From positions 64,001-128,000 of the IMG/VR virus record IMGVR_UViG_3300032316_000329: 64,000 bases of DNA. One strand, given 5' to 3'. The DNA is from a virus. The position numbers and the translations under genes were made by a program. The notes beneath the pieces are model-generated. The model saw nothing but the letters and a program-made list of their open reading frames with translations. It ran no database searches and was not told where the DNA came from. Shown here piece by piece: positions 13,251 to 60,800 of the stretch. The first letter of the stretch is position 1. Each line of letters begins with the position of its first letter.

Positions 13251-14687
13251 ATGGCTAACACAACAATCCAGATTAAACGCTCTGGCGTTACATCACAACC
13301 GGCGTCACTAGCGGCCGCCGAACCAGCGTATTCCTATCTTTCTGATAAACTCTTTATAGGTAATGCCACAGGTTCAGGTGTTATCGCCATTGGCGGTAAG
13401 TATTTTATCGACCAGTTAAATGTTGCCTTTGCTGTTGCCAATGCCGCTTATGGTGTTGCTAATAGTTCAACGGTTGCTAATGCCGCATACGATGTTGCCA
13501 ATGCGGCATTCGGTAAAGCCAATGCGGCCAATGTTCTTGCTTATAATACCGGTATCGGTGCTAATGCCTATGCTACTTTGGTTGGTACATCAGGTAATGC
13601 CTATGCTACTTTGGTTGGTACATCAGGTAATGCCTATGCTGATGTAGTAGGTGCGGCATCTAATGCTTGGGCCAATACAGTTGGTACATCAGGTAATGCT
13701 TACGCATCCGTAGTTGGTACAAATGCCAATAACTATTCTAATGCTACATTCGTTAAATTAGTGGCAGGTTCACAAACAATCACCGGTGATTTTAGTATTA
13801 CTGGTAATCTGTTTATTGGTGGCAATACCACTTCTGTTTCAGCCAATAACTTGGTTGTTAACGATCCATTAATTTACTTGGCAAACGGTAATCCTTCGGA
13901 CATTGTTGATATCGGATTCGTTGGTAGTTATGTTAATGGCACATCAGCACACGTCCATACCGGTCTTTTCAGAGATCATTCTAGTAAGCAATATTACTTG
14001 TTTCAAGGATTTGATGCTGATCCAGAGTTGAATAATGATCTTACACCATATGCCAATAATATGGTTAATGCTACCTTGATTGCCGACTTTGTTACAAGCA
14101 ATCTAACTCTTGGTGGTGCTAATGCTATTGTTTGGATTAAGTCTGCTTACGATAATGCGAATGGTGGTTTTGGTGTTACAAATGCGGCATTCGGACACTC
14201 AAATACCACATATGCAGCAGTTAATTCCGCTTTTGGTGTTATTAATGCTTCCTTTGGTGTTGCTAATGCTTCTTACGGACAAGTTAATACACTTGCCACA
14301 TCAGCAAATGCTTATGCTACTGCCGTCGGAGCAGCCGGTAATGCTTACACAGTTTCAGTTGGAACATCTGGTAATGCTTATGCTTCTGCTGTTGGTACTT
14401 CTGCCAATGTATATGCCGCGGCAGTTGGTACATCTGCCAATGCTTATGCTGACATTGTTGGTGGTGCTGCTAATACAAATGCTGCTAATGCTTCTTACCT
14501 ATCAACAGGAACAGTAATCGTCGCAAGAGGCGGTACTGGATTAAACTCAATTACTGCAAATGGTGTTATCTATGGTAACGGAACAGGTGCTGTTGGAGTA
14601 ACCTCGGCCGGATCCGAAGGCAATGTTCTACAGGTAAATGCTTCTGGTATACCAGCATTTGGTATGCTCGATGGAGGTACTTTCTAA
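13251..14687 (+). CDS. Tail fibre protein with Asn/Ala coiled-coil shaft
   Basis: TIQIKRS..P.SL...E.AYSY...KLFIG N-terminus; 11-residue NAYA..VGTSG repeats; V.DPLI.LA..DIGF.G...HTG.FRD domain; ends LDGGTF. Confidence 0.75.
   Translation: MANTTIQIKRSGVTSQPASLAAAEPAYSYLSDKLFIGNATGSGVIAIGGKYFIDQLNVAFAVANAAYGVANSSTVANAAYDVANAAFGKANAANVLAYNTGIGANAYATLVGTSGNAYATLVGTSGNAYADVVGAASNAWANTVGTSGNAYASVVGTNANNYSNATFVKLVAGSQTITGDFSITGNLFIGGNTTSVSANNLVVNDPLIYLANGNPSDIVDIGFVGSYVNGTSAHVHTGLFRDHSSKQYYLFQGFDADPELNNDLTPYANNMVNATLIADFVTSNLTLGGANAIVWIKSAYDNANGGFGVTNAAFGHSNTTYAAVNSAFGVINASFGVANASYGQVNTLATSANAYATAVGAAGNAYTVSVGTSGNAYASAVGTSANVYAAAVGTSANAYADIVGGAANTNAANASYLSTGTVIVARGGTGLNSITANGVIYGNGTGAVGVTSAGSEGNVLQVNASGIPAFGMLDGGTF
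13562..13640 (+). repeat. 33-bp tandem repeat (~2.4 copies; 11 aa)
   Basis: TAATGCCTATGCTACTTTGGTTGGTACATCAGG repeated exactly. Confidence 0.9.
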
Positions 14688-21248: not shown

Positions 21249-22406
21249 ATGCCAAATTTTAATAGTCCAGAAGGCGAACTAACTGATCTGTTTATGACGG
21301 ATGTAAGTATCCTGGATAGTTTTGTTGGTAATGAGTTGTGGGGATGGGGACGTAATGGTTATGGACAACTTGGTGACAACACAAGAACCAAAAGATCCTC
21401 ACCAGTCCAGACCGTATCTGGTGGAACCAACTGGAAGTTCGTTGCTTGTGGTTTTAATTACACCACTACCATTAAAACAGATGGAACGTTGTGGTCGTGG
21501 GGAGGAAATAGTTATGGTCAACTAGGTGATAACTCCAGAACCCATAGATCCTCTCCAGTCCAAACTGTATCTGGTGGTACCAATTGGAAACTAGTTGCTT
21601 GTGGTAGTTATCACACCACTGCCATTAAAACAGATGGTACCCTTTGGACCTGGGGTCAGAGTATTTATGGTCAACTAGGTGATAACTCAACAAACAATAG
21701 ATCCTCACCAGTCCAGACCGTATCTGCTGGTACAAATTGGAAACAAGTTGCTGGTGGTTTCAATCACACCACTGCCATTAAAACAGATGGTACATTATGG
21801 ACATGGGGAGGTAATGGTTATGGTCAACTAGGTGATAACTCAACAACCAGTAGATCCTCACCAGTTCAGACCGTATCTGCTGGTACCAATTGGAAACAGG
21901 TTGCTTGTGGTCAACACACTGCCGCCATCAAAACAGATGGTACATTATGGTTGTGGGGACGTAATGAATACGGTGCACTAGGTGATAATACAACAACCAA
22001 TAGATCCTCACCAGTCCAAACCGTATCTGGTGGAACCAACTGGAAACAAGTTGCTGGTGGTATTTACCACACCGCTGCCATTAAGACTGATGGAACCCTT
22101 TGGACCTGGGGATATAATACTGACGGTCAACTAGGTGACAATACAACAACCGATAGATCCTCACCAGTCCAAACCGTATCTGGTGGTACCAACTGGAAAC
22201 AGGTTGCTGGTGGTCGGTTTAACACTGCTGCCATTAAAACTGATGGTACATTGTGGGGATGGGGACGTAATACTGACGGTCAACTAGGTGATAACTCCAT
22301 AACCCATAGATCCTCACCGGTCCAGACTGTATCTAGTGGAACCAACTGGAAACTGGTTGCTGGTGGTAGTTATCACACTGCTGCCGTAACCTATACAGAA
22401 TCATAA
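21249..22406 (+). CDS. RCC1/BLIP-II-like 7-repeat beta-propeller protein A
   Basis: Seven ~51-aa repeats LW.WG.N..GQLGDN....RSSPVQTVS.GTNWK.VA.G..HT.AIKTDGT. Confidence 0.9.
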   Translation: MPNFNSPEGELTDLFMTDVSILDSFVGNELWGWGRNGYGQLGDNTRTKRSSPVQTVSGGTNWKFVACGFNYTTTIKTDGTLWSWGGNSYGQLGDNSRTHRSSPVQTVSGGTNWKLVACGSYHTTAIKTDGTLWTWGQSIYGQLGDNSTNNRSSPVQTVSAGTNWKQVAGGFNHTTAIKTDGTLWTWGGNGYGQLGDNSTTSRSSPVQTVSAGTNWKQVACGQHTAAIKTDGTLWLWGRNEYGALGDNTTTNRSSPVQTVSGGTNWKQVAGGIYHTAAIKTDGTLWTWGYNTDGQLGDNTTTDRSSPVQTVSGGTNWKQVAGGRFNTAAIKTDGTLWGWGRNTDGQLGDNSITHRSSPVQTVSSGTNWKLVAGGSYHTAAVTYTES

Positions 22407-22423
22407 TAAGAGGAAACAAAAAG

Positions 22424-23089
22424 ATGTTTGTAATCGTTCAAGACAATTTTGTAATAGATGGACCAAGGGATTGGAACAAGAAGAAGTTTGAAGAAGTTCT
22501 TTTAGAAGATTGTGAAGTAGATTTCACACTTGAAACCAGAAACGAATCCAACCTTCCAATCGTTGTTTCCGACACTGTTAAGATTCTTCCGGTAACCAAA
22601 CTTCCTGATCCAGTATTTAATTCCAAGACACAGATTCTTCAAGGGCCATTCTGGAACCTATCAGACACATTGGCCGAAGAATATTACACCGCGCAAGATA
22701 TGCCAGTGGATGCTGTTAAGAACTTTCTTACCTCTATTGTTGCTAATGCTCGGTATATTAAAGAAACTGCTGGTATTAAAATGACTATTCAAGGAACTCA
22801 GGTTTCTGTTGATACTGCTCGTGGTTCAAGAGATATATTCTTTCAGGCATTTTTATCTATTGGTGAAACTGAAACAATGAACTGGAAGTTTCCTGAGACC
22901 TGGTTAGAACTCACAAAGAGTGATCTGGGTTTGATTGTTTCTGCGGGTCGTAACCATATTCAGACATCTTTTGATTGGGAGAATGGTTGGGTCAATAGAG
23001 TTAGTGCTGCTGTTACATTGAATGATCTTAATACACTTTATAATGAACTGGAAGCGGAATTAAAACCACAGACAAATCCAACAGTATAA
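22424..23089 (+). CDS. Tail-fibre-associated protein (DUF4376-like C-terminus)
   Basis: VA.ARY.KE..G......V.T.R.SR....NWKF...W..LT..DL..I......HIQ..FDWE. Confidence 0.7.
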   Translation: MFVIVQDNFVIDGPRDWNKKKFEEVLLEDCEVDFTLETRNESNLPIVVSDTVKILPVTKLPDPVFNSKTQILQGPFWNLSDTLAEEYYTAQDMPVDAVKNFLTSIVANARYIKETAGIKMTIQGTQVSVDTARGSRDIFFQAFLSIGETETMNWKFPETWLELTKSDLGLIVSAGRNHIQTSFDWENGWVNRVSAAVTLNDLNTLYNELEAELKPQTNPTV

Positions 23090-23098
23090 GGTCGTATA

Positions 23099-24316
23099 AT
23101 GGCATATGGTTCAAATACAAATTATACTATTAGTGGTGTTGATGTAGGTAGACAACTTGTAACTAAAAGTTACTTGATTGATGTTTATCCATCTTTGGTT
23201 GGTACGTTTAAACAGGCAGGGTTATGGACCTGGGGGCGTAATGGTGCCGGTCAACTAGGTGACAATACAACAACCGGTAGATCATCTCCAGTTCAAACTG
23301 TATCTGGTGGTACAAATTGGAAACTGGTTGCTGGTGGTGGTTATCACACTGCTGCCATTAAGACTGATGGAACCCTATGGACCTGGGGAGGTAATTCTTA
23401 CGGTGCACTAGGCGACAATTCAACAAACTTTAGATCCTCACCAGTCCAGACTGTATCTGCTGGTACAAATTGGAAACAGGTTGCTTGTGGTTTTTTTCAC
23501 ACTGCTGCTATTAAGACTGATGGAACGTTATGGTTATGGGGAGATAATAGAAACGGTCAACTAGGTGACAATACAACAGCCCATAGATCCTCTCCAGTCC
23601 AAACTGTATCTAGTGGAACTAACTGGAAACTGGTTGCTAGTGGTCGTTATCACACCGCTGCCATTAAAACCGACGGAACCCTTTGGACCTGGGGAGCTAA
23701 TTATTCCGGTCAACTAGGTGACAATTCAACAAACCGTAAATCCTCACCAGTCCAGACCGTATCTGGAGGAACCAACTGGAAACTGGTTGCTTGTGGTGGT
23801 TTTCACAATGCTGCCATTAAAACTGATGGAACCCTTTGGACCTGGGGAGCTAATTATGCCGGTAATCTAGGTGATAACTCAATAACCAGTAAATCCTCAC
23901 CAGTCCAAACCGTATCTACTGGTACAAATTGGAAACTGGTTGCTGGTGGTAGTAGTCACACCTCTGCCATTAAGACTGATGGAACCCTATGGACCTGGGG
24001 ACATAATGGTTACGGTACACTAGGTGATAACTCCAGAACCCATAGATCCTCACCAGTCCAGACCGTATCTGGAGGAACCAACTGGAAACTGGTTGCTTGT
24101 GGTGGTTTTCACAATGCTGCCATTAAGACTGATGGAACCCTTTGGACCTGGGGATTTAATGCTTACGGTGCACTAGGTGATAACTCCGAAACCCGTAGAT
24201 CCTCACCAGTCCAAACCGTATCTGGTGGAACCAACTGGAAACAAGTTGCTGTTGGTGGTTATTACACTGCCTGTATCCGTGACGATTCAGCAGACATTTT
24301 CGGAAACACTATATGA
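23099..24316 (+). CDS. RCC1/BLIP-II-like 7-repeat beta-propeller protein B
   Basis: Seven 51-aa repeats as in protein A; distinct N-terminal leader. Confidence 0.9.
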   Translation: MAYGSNTNYTISGVDVGRQLVTKSYLIDVYPSLVGTFKQAGLWTWGRNGAGQLGDNTTTGRSSPVQTVSGGTNWKLVAGGGYHTAAIKTDGTLWTWGGNSYGALGDNSTNFRSSPVQTVSAGTNWKQVACGFFHTAAIKTDGTLWLWGDNRNGQLGDNTTAHRSSPVQTVSSGTNWKLVASGRYHTAAIKTDGTLWTWGANYSGQLGDNSTNRKSSPVQTVSGGTNWKLVACGGFHNAAIKTDGTLWTWGANYAGNLGDNSITSKSSPVQTVSTGTNWKLVAGGSSHTSAIKTDGTLWTWGHNGYGTLGDNSRTHRSSPVQTVSGGTNWKLVACGGFHNAAIKTDGTLWTWGFNAYGALGDNSETRRSSPVQTVSGGTNWKQVAVGGYYTACIRDDSADIFGNTI

Positions 24317-24819
24317 TCCATCCTCTTGTGAAGATTATAACCATTGATGGTTTTTTTAGTCAAGAAGAGGCCACCAGATTAGGTGAAATAACCAGAAACC
24401 TTCAATACACTCAAAACCAATTAGGTCAAGAGATAGAACATTTCAATATGGTTCCAGAAAACGCCAATGAAATGTTCTCTTTCATTCTAAATACAAAGAT
24501 AGAGGTGGATGAAGATCGTTCAGGTATATTCAGAAAGCCAGAGTTATTCATACACTTTGAGGAATTTGATACTCTTGATGAATGGGTTTTTGTTTGTGTT
24601 CTGGAACATACTATGTTTAATATATATCAGCACGAAAGCGGTGCCAAGAGTGCTTTGGATGGGTATCAGTTTAATTACAGGAACCTTATGGAATGGGGTT
24701 CTAATACAAAAGTTTCCTATGAACTATTGCCTGGAGAAGGCGTTCTGTTTAGACCGTGGTTGTTTCATTCGTTTAGTGGTGGTTTAATTCAGATATTCAG
24801 ATTAAAAGAGAGAGAATAG
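24313..24819 (+). CDS. Putative 2OG-Fe(II) oxygenase-like protein (DUF6445-like)
   Basis: IID.FF..FIHFE..H..SG....W...GVLFRPWLFHS. Confidence 0.6.
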   Translation: MIHPLVKIITIDGFFSQEEATRLGEITRNLQYTQNQLGQEIEHFNMVPENANEMFSFILNTKIEVDEDRSGIFRKPELFIHFEEFDTLDEWVFVCVLEHTMFNIYQHESGAKSALDGYQFNYRNLMEWGSNTKVSYELLPGEGVLFRPWLFHSFSGGLIQIFRLKERE

Positions 24820-25971
24820 ATGCCAACTTTTTATCAGGTTAACGGTGTATCGTTTGATGATCTGTTTGTAAGAAATGATTCATTCACAGAAGGTGGGTTG
24901 TGGACCTGGGGAAATAATGGTCTGGGTGAATTAGGTGATAACTCCAGAACCCATAGATCATCTCCAGTCCAAACCGTATCTGCTGGTACAAATTGGAAAC
25001 AGGTTGCTGGTGGTGGTAATCACACCGCTGCCATTAAAACTGATGGAACATTATGGTTATGGGGTAGTAATTTTTTTGGCCGATTAGGTGACAATACACA
25101 AACCGATAGATCCTCACCAGTTCAAACTGTATCTGCTGGTACAAATTGGAAACAGGTTGCTTGTGGTGGTACTCATACCGCTGCCATTAAGACTGACGGA
25201 ACCCTATGGACATGGGGACGTAATTATAATGGCCGATTAGGTGACAATACAACAACCGATACAACCTCACCAGTCCAAACCGTATCTGCTGGTACAAATT
25301 GGAAACAGGTTGCTTGTGGTGGTAATCACACCGCTGCCATTAAGACTGATGGAACCCTTTGGACCTGGGGACGTAATACTAACGGTCAACTAGGTGATAA
25401 CTCTTTAACCCATAGATCCTCACCAGTTCAAACTGTATCTGGAGGAACCAATTGGAAACAAGTTGCTGGTGGCGATAGTCATACTGCTGCCGTTAAAACT
25501 GATGGAACATTATGGATGTGGGGAGGCAATAGTTATGGTCAACTAGGTGATAACTCTTTAACCCATAGATCCTCACCAGTTCAAACTGTATCTGCTGGTA
25601 CAAATTGGAAGTTTGTTGCCAGTGGATATTATGCACATACTGCTGCCATTAAGACTGATGGAACCCTATGGACATGGGGACGTAATAATTTCGGTCAACT
25701 AGGTGATAACTCTTTAACCCATAGATCCTCACCAGTTCAAACTGTATCTGGTGGTGCCAATTGGAAACAAGTTTCTTGTGGTCGTTTTTACACAACTACC
25801 ATTAAAACTGATGGAACCCTGTGGACATGGGGACGTAATAGTTATGGTCAACTAGGTGATAATACAACAACCGGTAGATCATCACCAGTCCAAACCGTAT
25901 CTGCTGGTACAAATTGGAAACTAGTTGCTTGTGGCACTTATTTTACCGTCTCCATCCGAGATCAGTGGTAA
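24820..25971 (+). CDS. RCC1/BLIP-II-like 7-repeat beta-propeller protein C
   Basis: Seven ~51-aa repeats as in protein A. Confidence 0.9.
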   Translation: MPTFYQVNGVSFDDLFVRNDSFTEGGLWTWGNNGLGELGDNSRTHRSSPVQTVSAGTNWKQVAGGGNHTAAIKTDGTLWLWGSNFFGRLGDNTQTDRSSPVQTVSAGTNWKQVACGGTHTAAIKTDGTLWTWGRNYNGRLGDNTTTDTTSPVQTVSAGTNWKQVACGGNHTAAIKTDGTLWTWGRNTNGQLGDNSLTHRSSPVQTVSGGTNWKQVAGGDSHTAAVKTDGTLWMWGGNSYGQLGDNSLTHRSSPVQTVSAGTNWKFVASGYYAHTAAIKTDGTLWTWGRNNFGQLGDNSLTHRSSPVQTVSGGANWKQVSCGRFYTTTIKTDGTLWTWGRNSYGQLGDNTTTGRSSPVQTVSAGTNWKLVACGTYFTVSIRDQW

Positions 25972-50302: not shown

Positions 50303-51643
50303 ATGTATCTTACAGAAAACCTAGAGAAGAAGTGGTCACCAGTTCTTGACCACAACGGTCTCGACACCATTAAGGATTCATATCGCCGTGCTGTTACAGC
50401 GGTTATCCTTGAGAACCAAGAAAAGGCAATGGCTGAAGAGTCACGTGCCCTTAACGAAGCCGCTCCAACTAACGCTGGTGGCGGTCTCGGTGCAGGCACC
50501 AATGTTGCTTCATACGACCCAATTCTTATCTCACTCGTTCGTCGTGCGCTTCCTAACCTAATCGCATACGACATCTGCGGCGTTCAGCCAATGACCGGTC
50601 CAACCGGCCTTATCTTCGCAATGCGTTCTAAGTATAAGACAATGGATGGCGGCGAAGCACTATTTCTCGAAGCAAACACAGCATTTTCTTCACAGAACTC
50701 TGCTGGTGGTCTTGCTGGTGCTGTTTCTGGCGTTTCTGGTAACACCAACCCAGTTCTAGACCTTGGCGACTCCGCTACATTCGGTGTTGGTAAGGGCATG
50801 ACTACTGCTCAGTCAGAAGCTCTCGGCGATGCTGCTGGTAACATGTTTGCTGAAATGGCATTCTCAATCGAGAAGGTTACTGTAACCGCTCGTTCACGTG
50901 CCCTAAAAGCAGAATACACCACAGAACTTGCTCAGGATCTTAAGGCAATTCACGGCCTAGATGCTGAAACAGAACTTGCTAACATCCTTTCAACAGAGAT
51001 TCTTGCTGAAATTAACCGTGAGGTTATCCGCAGCATTTATCGTTCTGCTACAACAGGTGCTCAGTATGGTGTAACAACCGCTGGTACATTCGATCTTGAC
51101 ACAGACTCAAACGGCCGTTGGTCAGTTGAGAAGTTCAAGGGTCTTATTTTCCACATTGAGCGTGAAGCAAACGCAATCGCAAAAGCAACCCGTAGAGGCA
51201 AAGGCAATGTCCTTATCGTTTCTTCAGACGTTGCTTCAGCAATGGCTATGGCTGGTGTTCTCGACTACACCCCTGCTCTACAGGCTAACCTAACCGTTGA
51301 CGATACAGGCAACACATTTGTTGGCGTTCTTCACGGCCGTATTAAGGTCTATATCGACCCTTACTTCGGTGGTTCAGCAAACGGCGACGAACTCGTAACC
51401 GTTGGTTACCGTGGTTCTTCACCATTTGACGCTGGTCTATTCTACTGCCCATACGTTCCACTACAGATGGTTCGTGCTATCGGCCAGGATACATTCCAGC
51501 CAAAGATTGGATTTAAAACCCGCTACGGCATGGTTGCAAATCCATTCGCAACTTCAAATGCTGATGGTGTTGTTGGTGACCGCAATACTGCTGGTCAGGC
51601 AAACATCTACTATCGTATTTTCCGTGTGCGTAACCTCACATAA
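50303..51643 (+). CDS. gp23: Major capsid protein
   Basis: KW.PVL; LENQE; LVRR..P.LIAYD.CGVQPMTGPTGLIFAMR; ELAQDLKAIHGLDAE.EL; FQPKIGFKTRYG. Confidence 0.98.
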   Translation: MYLTENLEKKWSPVLDHNGLDTIKDSYRRAVTAVILENQEKAMAEESRALNEAAPTNAGGGLGAGTNVASYDPILISLVRRALPNLIAYDICGVQPMTGPTGLIFAMRSKYKTMDGGEALFLEANTAFSSQNSAGGLAGAVSGVSGNTNPVLDLGDSATFGVGKGMTTAQSEALGDAAGNMFAEMAFSIEKVTVTARSRALKAEYTTELAQDLKAIHGLDAETELANILSTEILAEINREVIRSIYRSATTGAQYGVTTAGTFDLDTDSNGRWSVEKFKGLIFHIEREANAIAKATRRGKGNVLIVSSDVASAMAMAGVLDYTPALQANLTVDDTGNTFVGVLHGRIKVYIDPYFGGSANGDELVTVGYRGSSPFDAGLFYCPYVPLQMVRAIGQDTFQPKIGFKTRYGMVANPFATSNADGVVGDRNTAGQANIYYRIFRVRNLT

Positions 51644-52346: not shown

Positions 52347-52808
52347 ATGTTTTTGCGACCACCTGTAACCCTTGACCAGTTGAATGACGAATGGGAAAAA
52401 GATTGTAATATTGACCATACCGATATTGATTTGGAGTTGTTAAAGATTTCTTCTTTACATTCCAAGTATTGTCGTATCCGTTCCCATCATAAACAAGTAT
52501 CCTTTTCCCTAGATGAAAAGTATAGAAACATGAAAGAACTCCGTAGGGAGTGGATTGAAGGTAAATCGGAACAGGAAACTTTGGAAAAGTATGGATGGCA
52601 CCAGTATCAAGGTCAACCAGTCACCATGCGAACGGCTCAGGAATCTAAACTGGAGCACGATCCAGAACTCACCAAAATACTATTGAAGAAGAAACTACAG
52701 GACCTCATTGTAGAGCAATGTGACCTAAACATTAGAGAACTTAATAATAGAAACTTTGCCTTAAGAGGCGTCATTGATGTGAGAAGGTTCCTAAAGGGTA
52801 ATGATTAG
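52347..52808 (+). CDS. uvsY: Recombination mediator
   Basis: W.KD..ID...L..E..KI..LHSKY; L..R.F.....ID...F..G; upstream of uvsW. Confidence 0.85.
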   Translation: MFLRPPVTLDQLNDEWEKDCNIDHTDIDLELLKISSLHSKYCRIRSHHKQVSFSLDEKYRNMKELRREWIEGKSEQETLEKYGWHQYQGQPVTMRTAQESKLEHDPELTKILLKKKLQDLIVEQCDLNIRELNNRNFALRGVIDVRRFLKGND

Positions 52809-54267
52809 AATTAGCAATAAAGATGAATCCTATATTAGGGTTGATTGTGAAGAAAGCATAGCATGGGAACTCCGTGATGCCTTCTCCTTCCGCCCACCTG
52901 GATTTCAGTTTGTTCCGGCCTATAAGCAAAAACTTTGGGATGGATATTTGCGCCTCTACGACACCAACAAAAGACAAATCTACCGTGGTCTAGCACCACA
53001 AGTTATGGAATGGGCAACTAAAAGAGGTTATACTTATGAATATGAAGATGAATCCTATGACACCGATTTTTCATTGGAAGAAGCCAATCAGTTCGTTGAG
53101 GTACTTAATCCAAAATACCCACCCCGTGACTACCAACTTAATTCCTTCGTTCATGCGATACGTTCTCAACGGCGTATTGTATTGTCACCAACTGGGTCTG
53201 GTAAATCTCTATTACTATATCTCATTAGCATGTATCTACTCCGGCAGGGAAAGAGAGGACTACTAATCGTTCCTCGTTCGGCCTTGGTTGAACAAATGTT
53301 CTCCGACTTTCAAGACTATTCTTGTAACAATGGTAAAGATATGTTCAAGTATTGTTGGAAAGTATATTCAGGTAGAGATAAAGACTCCGAGCATCCAATC
53401 ATTATCTCCACTTGGCAGTCATTACAGAGAATGCCTAAGGAGTATTTTGTAAAGTTTGATTATGTAATCTGTGATGAGGTTCATCTGGCACAAGCAAAAG
53501 CCCTATCTGATATTGTGACTAAGTGTACCAATGCCCAGTATAGACTTGGTGTTACCGGTACCTTATCTGGTGCCAAGGCACATGAATGGGTGCTAGTTGG
53601 TTTGTTTGGACAAATCTATAAGGCCACTACCTCAAAAGAACTAATGGATAAGAAGCAACTTGCGGAACTCACCATTAAATGTCTGCTATTGAAATATAGT
53701 GAAGAAGAATGTGAGTATATGAAACATGCTACTTACCAGCAGGAGATTGAGTATATCATTTCCAATAAGGCAAGAAATAAGTTCATATGTAATCTTACCC
53801 TCTCTTTAGATGGCAATAGTCTACTGCTATTCAACTATGTTGATAAGCATGGCACCGTCTTATACGACATGCTAAATAAGAAGGTTAAAGAAGGTCGAAA
53901 AGTATTCTTTATACATGGAGGAACAGATGTTGAGGATCGTGAACAGATTAGAAAGATTATGGAACAAGAAACCAATGCTATCATTGTTGGTTCTATCGGC
54001 GTTCTCAGTACCGGCACTAACATCGTGCGACTCAATAACATCATATTTGCATCCCCAAGTAAGTCCAAAATTAGGAATCTACAGTCAATCGGTAGGGGCC
54101 TCCGTGTTAATGACACCAAACAATCCGCCACTCTCTTTGACATTGCCGACGACTTTAGCTGGAAAAAGAAAGAAAACTTTACTCTTAAACACTTCTTCGA
54201 ACGCCTCAAAACCTACACAGAAGAACAGTTCAAGTTTAAACTCTACAAAATCCAAATCAAAGACTAA
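52801..54267 (+). CDS. uvsW: SF2 DNA/RNA-DNA helicase
   Basis: WDG.LRL; PRDYQ; SPTGSGKS; DEVH; SPSKS.IR.LQSIGRGLR. Confidence 0.96.
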   Translation: MIRISNKDESYIRVDCEESIAWELRDAFSFRPPGFQFVPAYKQKLWDGYLRLYDTNKRQIYRGLAPQVMEWATKRGYTYEYEDESYDTDFSLEEANQFVEVLNPKYPPRDYQLNSFVHAIRSQRRIVLSPTGSGKSLLLYLISMYLLRQGKRGLLIVPRSALVEQMFSDFQDYSCNNGKDMFKYCWKVYSGRDKDSEHPIIISTWQSLQRMPKEYFVKFDYVICDEVHLAQAKALSDIVTKCTNAQYRLGVTGTLSGAKAHEWVLVGLFGQIYKATTSKELMDKKQLAELTIKCLLLKYSEEECEYMKHATYQQEIEYIISNKARNKFICNLTLSLDGNSLLLFNYVDKHGTVLYDMLNKKVKEGRKVFFIHGGTDVEDREQIRKIMEQETNAIIVGSIGVLSTGTNIVRLNNIIFASPSKSKIRNLQSIGRGLRVNDTKQSATLFDIADDFSWKKKENFTLKHFFERLKTYTEEQFKFKLYKIQIKD

Positions 54268-54276
54268 GAGAAGATA

Positions 54277-54708
54277 ATGAATGATGTAAGTGAAGAACCA
54301 TCTGTCAAATTTATCCGATTAAACAACGGTGATGATATTATAGCAGAAGTGGTAGAGGTAGGTGATGATACACAGACCGATTATATGGTAATTAATCCAT
54401 TAAAAGTAGTTTATATACCTTCCCAGAGAGGTTCATCGTATCTACAAGTGGCATTTATGCCTTGGGTTTTTACCAAAATCTGTGAAGAACAGGAGTTTCT
54501 AATTCATTCAGATGATATCGTTACCATAGGTAATGTAAGTGAATATATGTTAGAATATTACTGGAAGAATATGGATTACTTTATTACTTCGGAAGATTCA
54601 ACAGTGGTGAGTGAAGAAAAACCAGAACCAGAAGAAACAGAACCAGAAGAAACATCTTTAGAAGAACTATTAGAAGCAATCAAATCATCAAGAAGGACTT
54701 TTCACTAA
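54277..54708 (+). CDS. Conserved Sm-like protein downstream of uvsW
   Basis: IRL.NGDDII......NP..V....F.PW; acidic tail ending RTFH. Confidence 0.65.
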   Translation: MNDVSEEPSVKFIRLNNGDDIIAEVVEVGDDTQTDYMVINPLKVVYIPSQRGSSYLQVAFMPWVFTKICEEQEFLIHSDDIVTIGNVSEYMLEYYWKNMDYFITSEDSTVVSEEKPEPEETEPEETSLEELLEAIKSSRRTFH

Positions 54709-55007
54709 TGGCAACCATAGCAACTAACGAATACCTTACACTAGATGATGCTGAACTTGTAGATGATTTCGGATTTACCTTTGGTAATGAGGACGATATC
54801 GTTGCCGAGGCCATCGCACCAGCATCCGACGAGATTACAGACCTTAAGAAAAGACTAGAGGCCGTTCGGAAGATTTATCTACCTCTCCTTGAAAACCTTA
54901 ATAAGAATTCCGACCAACCTATCATTAAGTGGCCAAATCGTGGTCCTATCCTTACAAAGCAGATTACAAAGTTAAAAATGCTCACCGAACCAGGTTTCGT
55001 TAAGTAG
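54708..55007 (+). CDS. Hypothetical T4-like protein
   Basis: DFGFTF..PLL.NL.KN....I.WPNR. Confidence 0.65.
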   Translation: MATIATNEYLTLDDAELVDDFGFTFGNEDDIVAEAIAPASDEITDLKKRLEAVRKIYLPLLENLNKNSDQPIIKWPNRGPILTKQITKLKMLTEPGFVK

Positions 55008-55079
55008 TTGCTTCGCAACTGTCTCGCTACGCTCGACGGGTTGCTTTTGGTTAATATTGGTGGTGGTTTTCTTTCCAAG

Positions 55080-55109
55080 ATTATACACACAAAACTGGAA
55101 CCTTGTCAA
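55080..55109 (-). promoter_or_regulatory. Leftward sigma70 promoter with no credible downstream ORF
   Basis: Minus strand TTGACA (55109-55104)-18 bp-TATAAT (55085-55080). Confidence 0.65.
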
Positions 55110-55133
55110 GCCCCGGAATGAAAAAATCCGCCA

Positions 55134-55162
55134 TTGACAATAACTTTTTTTTATTATATAAT
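55134..55162 (+). promoter_or_regulatory. Consensus sigma70 promoter for gp55
   Basis: TTGACA-17 bp-TATAAT. Confidence 0.85.
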
Positions 55163-55189: not shown

Positions 55190-55738
55190 ATGGCAAAGAA
55201 ACCCAACCACTATGTAGATAACCAAAAGTTTTTAGCAGAGATTATTGAGTATAAGGACAAATGTAAAAAGGCCGCAGACAACGGCCTAGAAAAACCTCGG
55301 GTCTCAGAGTATATCGGATCTTGTATTCTATTGATTGCTGAAAGACTTAGTACCAAACCTAGGTTTATGAACTACTCATTCCGTGATGAGTTGGTTTCCG
55401 ATGCCTTAGAGAATTGCTTTCTATACTTTGATAATTTCAATCCAGAGATTAGTCAGAATCCTTTTGCCTACTTTACACAAATCATCTACTATGCCTTCCA
55501 TAGACGAATCTCAAAAGAAGAAAAAAATCGTTATATTATTTACAAAAAATTTCAAGAATCCGTCCTACATACCTCAGATGCATCCTTGATGATTGATGCT
55601 GATGATAATCACTTGATTTCCTCCGCAATGTATGATAACCTAAATGACTTCATAGGAAAGTTTGAAAAGCGAGAAGCGGAAAAGAAAGAGAAACGCAAGC
55701 AGGTCAAACAAGGATTAGAAAATTTTACCGAGGAGTGA
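55190..55738 (+). CDS. gp55: Late-transcription sigma factor
   Basis: HYVDN..F; YIG.C...IAE.LS.KP.F.NY.FRDE..SD.LENC; NPFAYFTQI.YYAF.RRI.KEEK; ATG 55190. Confidence 0.95.
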   Translation: MAKKPNHYVDNQKFLAEIIEYKDKCKKAADNGLEKPRVSEYIGSCILLIAERLSTKPRFMNYSFRDELVSDALENCFLYFDNFNPEISQNPFAYFTQIIYYAFHRRISKEEKNRYIIYKKFQESVLHTSDASLMIDADDNHLISSAMYDNLNDFIGKFEKREAEKKEKRKQVKQGLENFTEE

Positions 55739-56182: not shown

Positions 56183-57259
56183 ATGGCGTTGATTGCTATG
56201 CCGACTGATACACACGCCGGAGTAAGAAATGACAATCCAGCGTTTCAGTTGTATCAGAAGAAATGCTGGAAGTGGTTCTTTGATTACATTGATGAACATA
56301 ACATTAAGCATGTTGTTCATCTTGGTGATATCTATGACCGCCGTAAGTATGTGAATTTTATGTCCGCCAAGAGACTGCGTGAGGATTTTCTTGAACCTCT
56401 GGAGGAACGAGGCGTTGAGACACATATTATACAAGGCAATCATGATTCATATTACAAGGATACACACGAGGTTAATGCCTTAGATGAACTTGTCGCAGGA
56501 AAGTATAGGTATATTAGGACTCATTCTGTACCTAGCATTATCAATATTGATGGGTTGGATATCCAAATAATGCCTTGGATTACCGACAGTAATCGTGAAG
56601 AGGCATTTGAAGCAATAACAAAACCAAGAGCGCCAATACTAATGGGCCATTTAGAATTGAATGGTTTCCAAATGCATAGAGGCACTATTTCAGACCACGG
56701 AATGGATAGAAATGTATTTGATAAATTTGATGCGGTATACTCGGGACATTACCATCATCGTTCTACTATTGGTAATGTTTCTTACATTGGTGCCTTTGCT
56801 GAATATACTTGGTCTGATTACGACGACCCTCGAGGATTTAGTATATTGGATACTGAATCACGACAAACCACCTTTTTAAGAAATCCTTATAGGATGTTCA
56901 GACTGGCCAAGTATGATGATGTTGCAAATCCTAATATCATTGAGAAGATACAAAATACTGACTTTTCAAAATATGCTGACACTTATGTTAAACTGGTTGT
57001 TGTTAACAAAAGTAATCCGTATGCTTTTGACTTGTTGTTTGATAGCATATACAAGGCAGGGCCTCTTGACATTACTATTATTGAGGACCCTACGGTTTTA
57101 TTAGATAATGAAGAAGAAGCGGAAGTTAATGAAGCGGAAGATACCGCTACTATATTGAGAAAGTATATTGGCGGTCTTACTTTACCAATAGATAATGATA
57201 AAATGAAAGAGTTCATGCTTGATGTTTATCAAGAGGCCCTTCAAGTGGAAACTGTCTAA
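56183..57259 (+). CDS. gp47: Recombination endonuclease subunit (Mre11/SbcD-like)
   Basis: TDTH.G; HLGD..DRRK; GNHD.YYK; GHLEL.GF; SGHYH. Confidence 0.95.
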
Positions 57260-57285: not shown

Positions 57286-59079
57286 ATGAATATGAAAAAA
57301 TATTTCCCTTGGGTGCTGTTGATTGCCGTTACTATTGGTCTTGCAATCTTTATGATGGAAGGCCAGGGAAAGAAGGCAGTTGCGGATGTCAACTTTACAG
57401 ATTTTATTGCTCAGGTTGACCGTAATAACGTTCATGACGTTATCATTAGTGGTTCACATGTTGTAGGACATTTTAGAGATAGTAATAGGGTTTTTACAAC
57501 TACTATTGCAGGCATTTCATCACTATTACCTCGGTTAGAGGAACATAATGTTAACATTGAGATTAAAGGAGAAGGTGAGGATTCTTTCTGGACCACACTC
57601 TTTCTTAATGCTTTCCCTATGTTTATTTTTATTGCTGTTTGGATTTACTTTGCTCGTAGAGGTACCGGCGGCCCTGGTGGTATCTCCGCATTTGGTAAGT
57701 CAAAGGCCAAACTACTAACAGAGGCCACAGGCACAAAGACATTTGAAGATGTTGCTGGTGTTGATGAAGCAAAGGAAGACCTACAAGAGGTTGTAGAGTT
57801 TCTACAGGATCCCGGTAAGTTTGAACGTCTCGGTGGTCGTATTCCAAAGGGTGTTCTACTCGTTGGTCCACCTGGCACAGGTAAGACATTGCTTGCCCGT
57901 GCCGTTGCTGGTGAAGCAGGTGTTCCATTCTTCTCTATCTCTGGTTCAGACTTTGTTGAAATGTTTGTGGGTGTGGGTGCTTCCCGTGTCCGTGACATGT
58001 TTGAACAGGCCAAGAAAAACGCACCATGCATTATCTTCATTGACGAAATTGATGCCGTTGGTCGCTCCCGTGCCAATGGTATCTCAGGTAACGATGAAAG
58101 AGACCAGACACTAAACGCCATGCTGGTTGAAATGGACGGTTTCAATGATAATGAAGGTATCATTGTTATTGCTGCTACAAACCGTGTGGATGTTCTAGAT
58201 GCTGCATTAACACGTCCTGGTCGTTTTGACCGTCAGATTCAGGTTCCTAATCCTGACTTTGTTGGTCGTGAGAAAATCCTTAAAGTTCATTCTCGCAAGG
58301 TTCCAATCGGTCCTGATGTCAACCTCAAGACAGTTGCAAAGGGCACACCAGGGTTCTCTGGAGCAGACCTGGCGAACCTTGTAAACGAGGCCGCACTACT
58401 AGCAGCAAGACGTTCAAAGCGTATTGTTACTGCTAAGGAGTTTGAAGATGCCCGAGATAAAATCCTCATGGGTGCCGAGCGCCGAACTCTATTGATGACC
58501 GAAGAAGAAAAGAGTATGACTGCCTATCACGAAGCAGGTCACGCCCTTGTCTCTATGCGTATGCCTGCATCCACCCCTATTCATAAGGCAACAATCATTC
58601 CTCGTGGTCGTGCATTAGGTATGGTTCAGTCTCTACCAGAACGTGACCGTATCTCTATGCATTATGAAGAAATGATTGCTCAACTTGCTATGGCAATGGG
58701 TGGTCGTGTAGCAGAGGAATTAATCTTTGGTAAAGACAAGGTATCTTCTGGTGCTTCTGGTGATATTCAGCAAGCAACCCAGTTGGCCCGTGCCATGGTT
58801 ACCGAGTATGGGTTCTCCTCCAAGTTAGGAAGAATGGCATATACAACACCTAATGCTGATATGTTTCATACACCTAAGATTTCGGAGAAAACACAAGAAA
58901 CGGTAGATAAAGAAGTCCTTAAACTTGTAGAAGAAGGATATGATACTGCTAAGAAAATCTTGACGGATGAAAAGAAACATCTTGACACAATAGCAAAAAG
59001 TCTGATAGAATATGAAACTCTATCAGGTAATGAACTCAAGGACTTGTTAGAAGGAAAGAAGCCAACAAGAGATTATTGA
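57286..59079 (+). CDS. ftsH: ATP-dependent zinc metalloprotease FtsH (full length, 2 TM)
   Basis: Two TM helices; GPPGTGKT; FIDEID; ATNR..LD.AL.RPGRFD; HEAGH; GGR.AEE. Confidence 0.97.
58982..59011 (+). promoter_or_regulatory. Putative sigma70 promoter inside the ftsH 3' end, serving gp46
   Basis: TTGACA-18 bp-TAGAAT with a TG extension. Confidence 0.55.
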
Positions 59080-60800
59080 TGATTACTTTTCATTATGTCA
59101 AGTGGAAAAACTTTTTATCTGCTGGTAATAATTTTACTGAGATAGAACTAGACACACACAAGAATACCCTTATTATGGGACACAATGGGTCGGGGAAGTC
59201 AACCTTCCTCGACGCATTAACTTTTGCTCTATTCGGCAAACCTTTTCGTAAGGTAAACAAGGGTAATGTCGTTAACTCTATCAACCAAAAGAACTGCGAG
59301 GTTCAGATTGAGTTTACTATTTCCAATAAGAGATACAAAGTTATTCGTGGTGTAAAACCGAACATCTTTGAAATCTTTTGTGAAAGTGTTATGGTGAATC
59401 AAGATGCGGCCGCCAAGGACTACCAGGATTACCTTGAGAAGCACATTCTCAAGATGAACTTTAAATCATTCACACAGATTGTTATTCTAGGATCGGCCTC
59501 GTTTACTCCGTTTATGCAACTATCTCCCAATGACCGTAGAACTATCATCGAGGATCTTTTAGATATCCAAATCTTCTCGGCTATGTCTACTGTTGTTAAG
59601 AACCGATTACAATTGAACCGTGAAGGCCTAGAGAAGAATAGAATTACACTTACCAGCAAAGAAGAAAATAAAACTTACATTGAAACTACCTTAGCATCAT
59701 TAAGAGTAAATAATGAAGATAAACTTTCTCAATTGAGAGAAAAAGAACAGGAACTAAAAGATAGTTTAGTTTCCGAAAAATCAACAATTTCCCAGTTAGA
59801 GAATCAAAGAGATAAAATTTTAGAGAATGGTATTGACCTTACACCATTAAAGTCTAAGCATTCCAAACTAATTGGTTTCAAGGCCAAAATGGAAGGTAAT
59901 ATTGAGCGTATTCAAAAAGATAACTCGTTTTTTGAGACGAATGATACTTGTCCCACTTGCCGTCAGAGCATTGAAGAATCATTCAAAAAAGAAACAATCA
60001 ATTCTAACGAAAAGAAGATTACAGAAATTGATGATGGACTAAATAAGGTTTCCGAACAGATAGACTCAGTTCTAGCCGAGATAGAGAAAATAGATGCTGT
60101 CCTCCGAGAGATCAACCAAATTAAAATGGATCTTTCATCTGCTAATTCTACCTATAACAATATCTCTAATAATCTTAAACAAATTGTGGGTCAGATTGAG
60201 ACCTTCGCAGGATCAGACAAGACAACACAAGATAGCGAACGACAACTTGAAACCGTCCAATATGATATTTCCACCCTCGAAGAAGAAAAGAAGGCCCTTC
60301 TAGATGAAAGACAATATGTGGATTTGGCAACAACTCTTCTTAAAGACGGTGGCATTAAGACCAAGATTATTAAACAATATCTACCTATCATCAATAAGCA
60401 TATCAACAAATACCTGGCCAAACTGGGTTTCTTTGTTAACTTTAACATCAATGAATCCTTTGAAGAATCTATCAAGTCTAGATACAGAGACGAGTTCTCC
60501 TATCACAATTTCTCCGAAGGTGAGAAGTTGCGAATTGATTTGGCCATTCTACTGACATGGAGACAAATTGCCAAACTAAAGAACTCCGTAAATGTTAACA
60601 TTATTGTGTTTGATGAAATCCTTGACCGTGCTATGGACAATACTGGCATTGACGAGTTTATGAAGATTATGTGGGATGACCTGGGTAAAGATTCCAATGT
60701 CTTTGTCATTTCTCATAAGGAAACTATGACCGAAAGATTCCAAAGGACTCTTCGTTTTGAAAAGGTGAAAAACTTTAGTAGCTTGACAAAAGAGACCTGA
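59076..60800 (+). CDS. gp46: Recombination ATPase subunit (Rad50/SbcC-like)
   Basis: WKNFLS.GN; G.NGSGKST; CPTC zinc hook; FSEGEK.RIDLA; FDE; ISH. Confidence 0.96.

Follow-up and report, generated by a model that had tools for sequence, protein, structure and literature searches.

Why would a phage keep a perfect-consensus promoter that is directed against all of its neighbouring genes and serves none of them? The question is raised by a compact unit of ~105 bp, here called the module, in a 64,000-nucleotide stretch of viral DNA (the window; bases 64001–128000 of IMG/VR record IMGVR_UViG_3300032316_000329, which is 165,114 bp long with 38.8% GC). The virus is a freshwater T4-like myovirus whose late-transcription sigma factor, gp55, is ~54% identical to marine cyanophage gp55s. 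The module consists of a leftward, or backward, sigma70 promoter followed by two small hairpins, H1 and H2, and sits upstream of gp55 within the uvsY–uvsW–gp55–gp47 block for replication and recombination. The account that we favour, tentatively and with less than even confidence, is that the module may be a transcription-activated replication origin with hairpin-assisted helicase loading.

The backward promoter and its mini-hairpins

A first-pass annotation of this DNA had described back-to-back sigma70 promoters, the leftward one of the form TTGACA-18-TATAAT and without a gene. Both promoters were recovered, each a 12/12 match to the consensus (Table 1). The leftward transcript is predicted to start near position 55073, which leaves 66 nt to the stop codon of the 99-aa gene upstream, and the promoter is indeed gene-less: no credible minus-strand open reading frame (ORF) starts downstream of ~55073, the 71-aa and 45-aa frames there beginning within the promoter itself. 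A leader peptide was rejected, as no ATG or reading frame is conserved. The 165-kb genome has 16 perfect 12/12 promoters on its plus strand and one, the leftward promoter, on its minus strand; such perfect-consensus promoters serve as the early promoters of the genome. The rightward promoter of gp55 lies outside the conserved core and was found in 17/42 assessable relatives.

Downstream of the backward promoter, the GC-rich island that had been given as a 39-nt string (minus strand, 55044–55006) consists of the two adjoining hairpins H1 and H2, and the two GNA mini-hairpins claimed for the non-template strand were found where the annotation had placed them. Covariation among relatives is strong in both. 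In H1, 88.5% of cells are paired compared with 28–42% in slid controls, 6/8 pairs are compensatory and 0/500 shuffles reach the score; in H2, 95.2% of cells are paired (slid controls, 16–43%) and 4/5 pairs are compensatory. The stems of H1 vary widely around an invariant GC-TTC-GC core (plus-strand reading), and the outer stem of H2 covaries around inner pairs and a TC/TC mismatch (minus-strand G.A/G.A) that are all invariant. The only minus-strand loops seen among relatives are GAA, GTA and GTTA, the last in a single GC-GTTA-GC variant (locus L186). Folding energies, for RNA and DNA and on both strands, are not significantly below those of shuffles (z about -1 to -1.5); nearest-neighbour models omit the special stability of mini-hairpins. 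Judged by covariation rather than by folding energy, H1 and H2 are real. An alternative pairing is available between GTTGC at 55040–55044 and the 3′ half of H1.

The conserved core, GC-GNA-GC (or GNNA) on one strand, fits the sequence rules for DNA mini-hairpins, which are extraordinarily stable (melting temperature 76.5 °C), tolerate GTTA as a loop and are far less stable as RNA (PMC13037366). Mini-hairpins of this d(GCGNAGC)/d(GCGNNAGC) type are known at the G4 priming site (the complementary-strand origin), RSF1010 ssiA and the promoters of the N4 virion RNA polymerase (PMC13037366). The module has in common with these sites the GC-GNA-GC core, short stems, the GTTA variant (in one relative) and a predicted initiation-site setting. 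It differs from them in that no RepB′-type primase or N4-type RNA polymerase turned up, although no search was aimed at either, and in that its genome is double-stranded, so that the hairpins would need transcription, replication or supercoiling for their exposure. Genome-wide, GCGNAGC heptamers are under-represented (14 observed versus 28 expected), and only four have stems or G.A flanks, all on the minus strand and all in the module and its second copy (described below). The hairpin features that are conserved would make sense for single-stranded DNA rather than for RNA.

The first-pass annotation had also pointed to a ColE1 string resembling this site. The string is real: ColE1 (NC_001371) positions 1331–1348 equal the minus strand of the window (plus-strand 55018–55035) at 17/18 bases, and 0/200 shuffles gave a match with three or fewer mismatches. 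The matching stretch includes a 13-nt core contained in H2, and in ColE1 the 18-mer is flanked by rop on one side and the origin region on the other. By comparison with pBR322, it lies on the strand displaced by leading-strand synthesis, ~150 nt past the RNA–DNA switch, and presumably within the mapped lagging-strand PriA site. On that footing, the strand logic of the module is that of ColE1.

The spacer between the -10 element and H2 is 34–64 nt long and variable in sequence among relatives, and the corresponding leader of the leftward RNA, about 35–65 nt and C/A-rich, is unconserved except for a CCACCA motif. Read as TGGTGG on the plus strand, this motif occurs in 20/39 aligned modules, compared with 1.7 expected from shuffled spacers, and in a looser form in 28/39. 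A weak third mini-hairpin, H3, has the form xGC-GGA/GAA/AAA-GCx on the plus strand of most relatives; it is 69% paired, with a covariation score of 0.41 against 0.06–0.21 for slid controls, and is weaker than H1 and H2. With GGA/GAA loops at the promoter, H3 is similar in its loops to the hairpins of N4 promoters. A DnaA box overlapping TGGTGG and H3 was rejected, because it matches at 7/9 positions in a subset only and at 5/9 in the window.

Conservation, duplication and spread

Relatives were collected by homology of the 99-aa protein and hence without bias from the DNA motif. Lack of conservation had been named beforehand as a possible refutation of an origin at this site; the module, defined as a 12/12 leftward promoter with H1 and H2, was found in 45/45 distinct loci with at least 57% identity in the 99-aa protein. 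In these close relatives it always stands directly after the 99-aa gene; in the more distant homologues (n = 11) the whole module is absent. Toward its 3′ end the 99-aa gene shows no constraint on synonymous sites, and no element reaches into it. A nucleotide search of a phage collection returned no match to the element, and an exact search with its 24-nt core in viral contigs returned none beyond the element's own record.

The same genome carries a second copy (G000 14008–14107), flanked by a DUF7207 gene and by the gene of a 149-aa protein. The hairpins of this copy show 96% identity, the spacing is equal, the spacer sequence has diverged and the leftward promoter matches at 11/12; because promoter and hairpins are kept together in it, the two behave as one unit. 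Five related large records have one module copy each. A partial third copy (minus strand, 51179–51197) lies in a coding region and lacks hairpins, and we set it aside as chance or irrelevant.

Gene content just right of the module is plastic: relatives have various genes at this junction, or a GIY-YIG-like ORF, and in 18/42 of them another gene stands between module and gp55. One locus (L215) has the GIY-YIG-like ORF, with an N-terminal YIGKG motif, directly right of the module and ~100 nt from the backward -35; in 17 other relatives a ~250-aa gene (MFSFFHR...) takes the place of gp55. In sister clade B, T4-like contigs with 32–34% GC, the H2–H1 block is inverted and accompanied by one extra hairpin, and an 11/12 backward promoter lies about 100–130 nt away. 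Two locations are occupied in clade B, one flanked by the Sm-like gene and gp55, the other by the tail tube gene and uvsY. Large intergenic palindromes and arrays of the same GC-GAA-GC and tandem-G.A mini-hairpins were also seen in phage contigs with 26–32% GC (L116:8168-8266, L106, L121 and L124), with no consensus promoter within 300 nt.

The backward promoter extends beyond the hairpin-bearing clade. In a wider survey of 79 diverse gp55 loci (44–88% identity), with a cut-off of 11/12 or better, the last 250 nt before gp55 contain a minus-strand promoter in 24 loci, compared with 0–3 in any other 250-nt bin within 3 kb. The backward promoter was also confirmed in cultured phages, namely S-RIM8, Syn9, P-SSM2 and S-PM2 (each 11/12) and HTVC008M (12/12); T4 has no backward promoter upstream of gene 55. 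In Syn9 the backward promoter is interdigitated with the forward one, and in P-SSM2 one -35 position is common to both, so RNA polymerase binding would be mutually exclusive, one promoter at a time. In hairpin-less lineages, 10–30 nt separate the backward start from the stop codon upstream, and the transcript must therefore be antisense to the upstream gene. Judged by this distribution, the backward promoter is older than the mini-hairpins.

Instead of mini-hairpins, Syn9, S-PM2, P-SSM2 and S-RIM8 share a conserved G-rich sequence where the backward transcript is predicted to begin. This sequence, around CTGTCAGGGTT on the backward strand, lies within 150 nt upstream of gp55 in the four cyanophages (L243 for Syn9, L242 for P-SSM2, L244 for S-PM2 and L236:2380-2470 for S-RIM8). 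In HTVC008M (L245), ~150 nt upstream of gp55, a palindromic hairpin AGGCA-CA-TGCCT abuts the backward -10 in the same place as H3 of the focal module. Many diverse T4-like contigs (L007, L009, L014, L017, L024, L028, L055, L058, L069, L071 and L078) have a tandem -35 (TTGACA, 4–6 nt, CTTGACA) inside the backward promoter upstream of gp55; the second -35 is too near the -10 to serve that promoter and could be a protein-binding site or double as the -35 of the forward promoter.

A candidate transcript-primed origin and its rivals

In the mechanism that we envisage, host sigma70 RNA polymerase would fire the early promoter and produce an untranslated transcript that runs through the C/A-rich leader and crosses the two tandem mini-hairpins right after the stop codon of the upstream operon. 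The leftward RNA, or a piece of it processed by RNase H, would stay annealed to the plus strand and, in the manner of T4 oriF/oriG and ColE1, prime leading-strand synthesis in the leftward direction. Two extra-stable hairpins with GNA loops and tandem G.A pairs would then form on the displaced minus strand; they could resist re-annealing and coating by single-stranded-DNA-binding protein while offering fork-like single/double-strand junctions for helicase loading, either by phage gp59/gp41 or, at a stage when phage proteins have yet to accumulate, by host PriA. We infer each stage, from transcript and R-loop to priming and helicase loading, from the sequence.

An origin is supported because the gene-less promoter is perfect and unique on the minus strand of the genome, because the invariant parts of the hairpins are those that make DNA mini-hairpins extraordinarily stable, and because the H2 core matches the ColE1 hairpin in the same strand relation. 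It is further supported because the size of the module resembles that of minimal T4 origins and the phage encodes the gp59 helicase loader, because the location is the replication and recombination block with its plastic right junction, and because all 45 relatives keep promoter and hairpins and the second copy preserves the unit.

T4 origins are ~100 bp long and consist of a promoter and a downstream element, with the promoter RNA priming synthesis; the oriE promoter is of the early type, and gp59 binds branched DNA (PMC3016281). By the title of a reference cited there, T4 origins also coincide with recombination hot spots. The T4 origins oriF(uvsY), oriG(34) and oriE (Kreuzer and Brister 2010, PMC3016281) resemble the module as proposed in being ~100-bp promoter-based units in which the transcript matters and not its product, and in which the non-template strand is exposed for gp59/gp41 loading. 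They also share its position in the replication and recombination block beside uvsY and uvsW, a proximity that the first-pass annotation had pointed out for the uvsW operon and that holds here, with uvsY and uvsW just upstream. oriF and oriG require their promoter in cis; the module has a conserved 12/12 promoter that is early, as at oriE, and not middle (MotA). Unlike those of T4, the promoter of the module is a plain sigma70 promoter that runs against the genes and serves none, and it is followed by a C/A-rich leader and GC-rich mini-hairpins.

The likeness to the ColE1/pMB1/p15A type of origin (n′-pas, ssiA) is of another kind. There, a promoter-made RNA primes the leading strand and a hairpin downstream on the displaced, RNA-like strand recruits helicase and primase, as we propose for the module. 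ColE1 differs in its 555-nt structured RNA II, RNA I and Rop, which are lacking in the module; we found no Rfam match and no opposing small-RNA promoter inside the ~105 bp. The hairpins of the module lie ~30–60 nt past the predicted start, as opposed to ~150 nt past the RNA–DNA switch in ColE1, and the AAGCGG hexamer of PriA sites is absent.

Several observations weigh against an origin. An A+T-rich unwinding element of the T4 oriF/oriG kind was not found: the spacer is 55% AT (s.d. 6%) compared with 61% for the genome, and is followed by the GC-rich island. The leader RNA is G-poor (skew -0.40), and by hybrid stability such a leader does not favour nucleation of an RNA–DNA hybrid. GC skew, which had been put forward as a check, is monotonic both locally and genome-wide, with no inflection at either copy; it follows gene orientation and is uninformative. 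PriA is not known to be required in T4-type replication. Mismatches at the stem ends, scored as G.T versus A.C, do not decide by wobble asymmetry which strand folds, and RNAalifold scores both strands alike. In clade B the inverted GNA loops fall on the template strand, and only the GNA loop of the extra hairpin falls on the displaced strand. Finally, because many lineages have the backward promoter without mini-hairpins, the hairpins are a lineage-specific addition, and because the promoter is kept where the hairpins are missing, a pas-like hairpin cannot be the core of the conserved function. The R-loop, ColE1-like origin of the first-pass annotation thus keeps its anatomy, its ColE1 strand logic, its conservation and an encoded gp59, but is weakened by the missing AT-rich element, the G-poor leader, the clade B inversion and the hairpin-less lineages.

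The nearest rival, which we consider rather unlikely yet serious, is that the module is the gene of a small non-coding or cis-antisense early RNA. Such an RNA could be short (~70–110 nt), with a C/A-rich 5′ leader and the two hairpins at its 3′ end as terminator or stabiliser, or it could be a longer 'anti-late'-type RNA that reads antisense into the 99-aa/Sm-like/uvsW operon and would lower its expression early in infection, for example so that the R-loop helicase UvsW stays off until the early promoters are silent. Hairpins behind a gene-less promoter are the standard anatomy of a small RNA, the fixed-position CCACCA could be a seed, and the constant neighbour of the module is a gene for an Sm-like (DUF6561) protein. 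A backward promoter beside gp55 is kept across distant lineages, where it starts antisense to the upstream gene, and the extra copies fire into the 3′ ends of other operons (that of the tail tube gene in clade B, that of the DUF7207 gene here). However, the minus strand has no U-tract past the hairpins and no terminator was called there, the RNA fold energy is insignificant, and a search of Rfam 15 with E up to 10 gave only chance-level matches to eukaryotic families, far below gathering scores. The leader is unconserved apart from CCACCA, and a GAA triloop on two G-C pairs confers special stability in DNA, not in RNA. If the hairpins did terminate the RNA, it would be antisense to no gene in this clade. 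The model is lambda OOP RNA, which, like the RNA predicted here, is a short leftward product of a gene-less promoter that runs against the main operon where the upstream gene ends, next to replication genes, and which was once proposed as a replication primer. OOP differs in having a canonical intrinsic terminator and a 55-nt overlap with cII; in the module, which lacks a U-tract, the hairpins come before the upstream gene is reached.

Two further explanations do without a functional leftward RNA. A transcription boundary or timing device, which we think improbable, would use the hairpins to end or stabilise the mRNA of the upstream operon and the opposing promoter for its activity, not its product: that promoter may collide with or occlude rightward read-through, or compete with or supercoil-activate the gp55 promoter, and so set the timing and amount of the late sigma factor. 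This would fit the pile-up of backward promoters only in the 250 nt before gp55, their overlap or interdigitation with forward promoters in P-SSM2 and Syn9, and the placing of the hairpins precisely where the operon ends, with a short T-rich motif behind them. Moreover, 25/42 downstream genes in the focal clade (clade A) have no sigma70 promoter of their own and start 7–30 nt past the backward -35, so rightward transcription must cross the module. Against such a device, a simple terminator test failed: no terminator-like site was called on either strand at 55006–55050, where an interrupted stem is followed by only 3–4 T on the plus strand and by none on the minus strand, and the sole T-rich stretch able to serve as a weak U-tract for plus-strand transcripts is the GC(A/G/T)TTTGG motif. 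Plus-strand RNA would have UC/UC mismatches and UUC triloops, which make poor RNA hairpins; the intervening gene in 18/42 relatives and the unrelated genes behind the second copies also count against it, and it leaves the strict DNA-type mini-hairpin core and the ColE1 identity unexplained. Far less probable still is a mobile regulatory cassette, similar to the PeSLs, that mediates recombination or gene shuffling and gives its transcript no dedicated role. PeSLs resemble the module in combining a strong sigma70-like promoter with a stem-loop in intergenic, duplicated units at plastic junctions, and the duplication of the module, in both this genome and clade B, to unrelated sites, the inversion of the hairpin block between clades, the variable gene content immediately to its right and the mini-hairpin arrays and palindromes of other low-GC phage contigs would all suit a mobile cassette. 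The PeSL cassettes of RB49 and phi1 (Arbiol et al. 2010) reportedly have promoters facing with the genes and many copies per genome, whereas the module is anti-directional, has one or two copies and is syntenically fixed across deep divergence. The small weight that remains goes to something not yet thought of.

A transcript-primed origin would matter beyond this phage. A review of the field records only one predicted single theta origin, for Syn9 (PMC2984593). Origins of cyanophages and of other marine and freshwater T4-like phages are not known to have been mapped experimentally, and the module is a precise, conserved candidate; we found no description of the element in the literature searched. 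As a broader conjecture that we regard as doubtful, the backward early promoter could serve all non-T-even T4-like phages (marine cyanophages, pelagimyophages and freshwater pmoC phages) as their primary transcript-primed origin, with ColE1-like single-strand initiation (ssi) hairpins, made of extra-stable DNA mini-hairpins, acquired in the freshwater clade. If so, the displaced strand would receive its helicase through the acquired hairpins, and a T4-type replication system would contain a plasmid-style origin. An antisense or timing device would instead amount to conserved control of the late sigma factor or UvsW, and so to a hitherto unrecognised regulatory layer in T4-like development. In both cases, selection keeps the exact Hirao-type DNA mini-hairpin and tandem G.A rules across dozens of diverged genomes, which would be unusually clear evidence for the action of mini-hairpins in vivo. 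Because Syn9, S-PM2, P-SSM2, S-RIM8 and HTVC008M carry the backward promoter, the origin question is directly testable in culture.

Genomic setting and further observations

The genes around the module are all on the plus strand, in the order uvsY, uvsW, the gene for a 143-aa DUF6561/Sm-like protein, the 99-aa gene, the element, gp55 and gp47 (Table 1).

Table 1. Features of the module and its surroundings, in window coordinates
Feature	Position	Strand	Description
uvsY	52347-52808	+	
uvsW	52801-54267	+	
143-aa DUF6561/Sm-like protein gene	54277-54708	+	Sm-like match sub-threshold
99-aa gene	54708-55007	+	Function unknown; last of the uvsY-uvsW-(Sm-like)-99aa block; stop TAG 55005-55007
Hairpin H1	55006-55020	-	6-bp stem, GC-GAA-GC core (plus: GC-TTC-GC); overlaps final two bases of the stop codon
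Hairpin H2	55021-55037	-	3-bp outer stem, tandem G.A/G.A internal loop, two G-C pairs, GTA loop
Conserved linear motif GC(A/G/T)TTTGG	55043-55050	+	3-9 nt past H2 in the alignment
TGGTGG motif	55058-55066	+	CCACCA in the leftward transcript; fixed 18-22 nt from -10
Weak third mini-hairpin H3	55071-55079		CTT-TCC-AAG in the window; abuts -10, spans predicted start
Leftward (backward) gene-less sigma70 promoter	55080-55109	-	TTGACA 55109-55104, 18-nt spacer, TATAAT 55085-55080; 12/12
Rightward sigma70 promoter of gp55	55134-55162	+	TTGACA 55134-55139, 17-nt spacer, TATAAT 55157-55162; 12/12
gp55, late-transcription sigma factor	55190-55738	+	ATG at 55190; PHROG 234, E = 2.9e-56
gp47	56183-57259	+	

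The 99-aa protein has no PHROG or Pfam match, and sequence searches of the PDB with it and with its 143-aa neighbour returned nothing useful. The DUF6561 protein is the constant left neighbour of the module, with homologues at L236:1923-2384 (S-RIM8) and L147:2729-3106; the RefSeq name of the S-RIM8 homologue, 'methylamine utilization', looks like an inherited misnomer.

About 18 kb past the end of the window, the genome has a full-length AmoC/PmoC gene (G000:C1:146363-147076; Pfam PF04896, E = 8.7e-110), and no psbA was found in it. Given these two facts, a methane or ammonia oxidiser is the probable host, rather than a cyanobacterium.

Elsewhere in the window, a 597-aa protein with AAA+ ATPase-type PHROG matches is encoded at 57286–59079, between gp47 and a large ORF at 59076–60800. 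Three paralogous genes at 21249–25971 are made of at least 17 copies of a 153-bp repeat (61–84% identity; family D1), and Ala/Asn-rich 21-bp periodic repeats run through several large structural genes (3.6–7.5 kb, 13–18 kb and 35–37 kb). Counted over the whole genome (G000), all 18 copies of the E. coli Chi octamer GCTGGTGG are on the plus strand, and GNTGGTGG has 59 copies there and 11 on the minus strand. Though striking, this polarity is probably a coding-strand and glycine-codon effect, and a Chi-like reading of (G)NTGGTGG was rejected on the same grounds.

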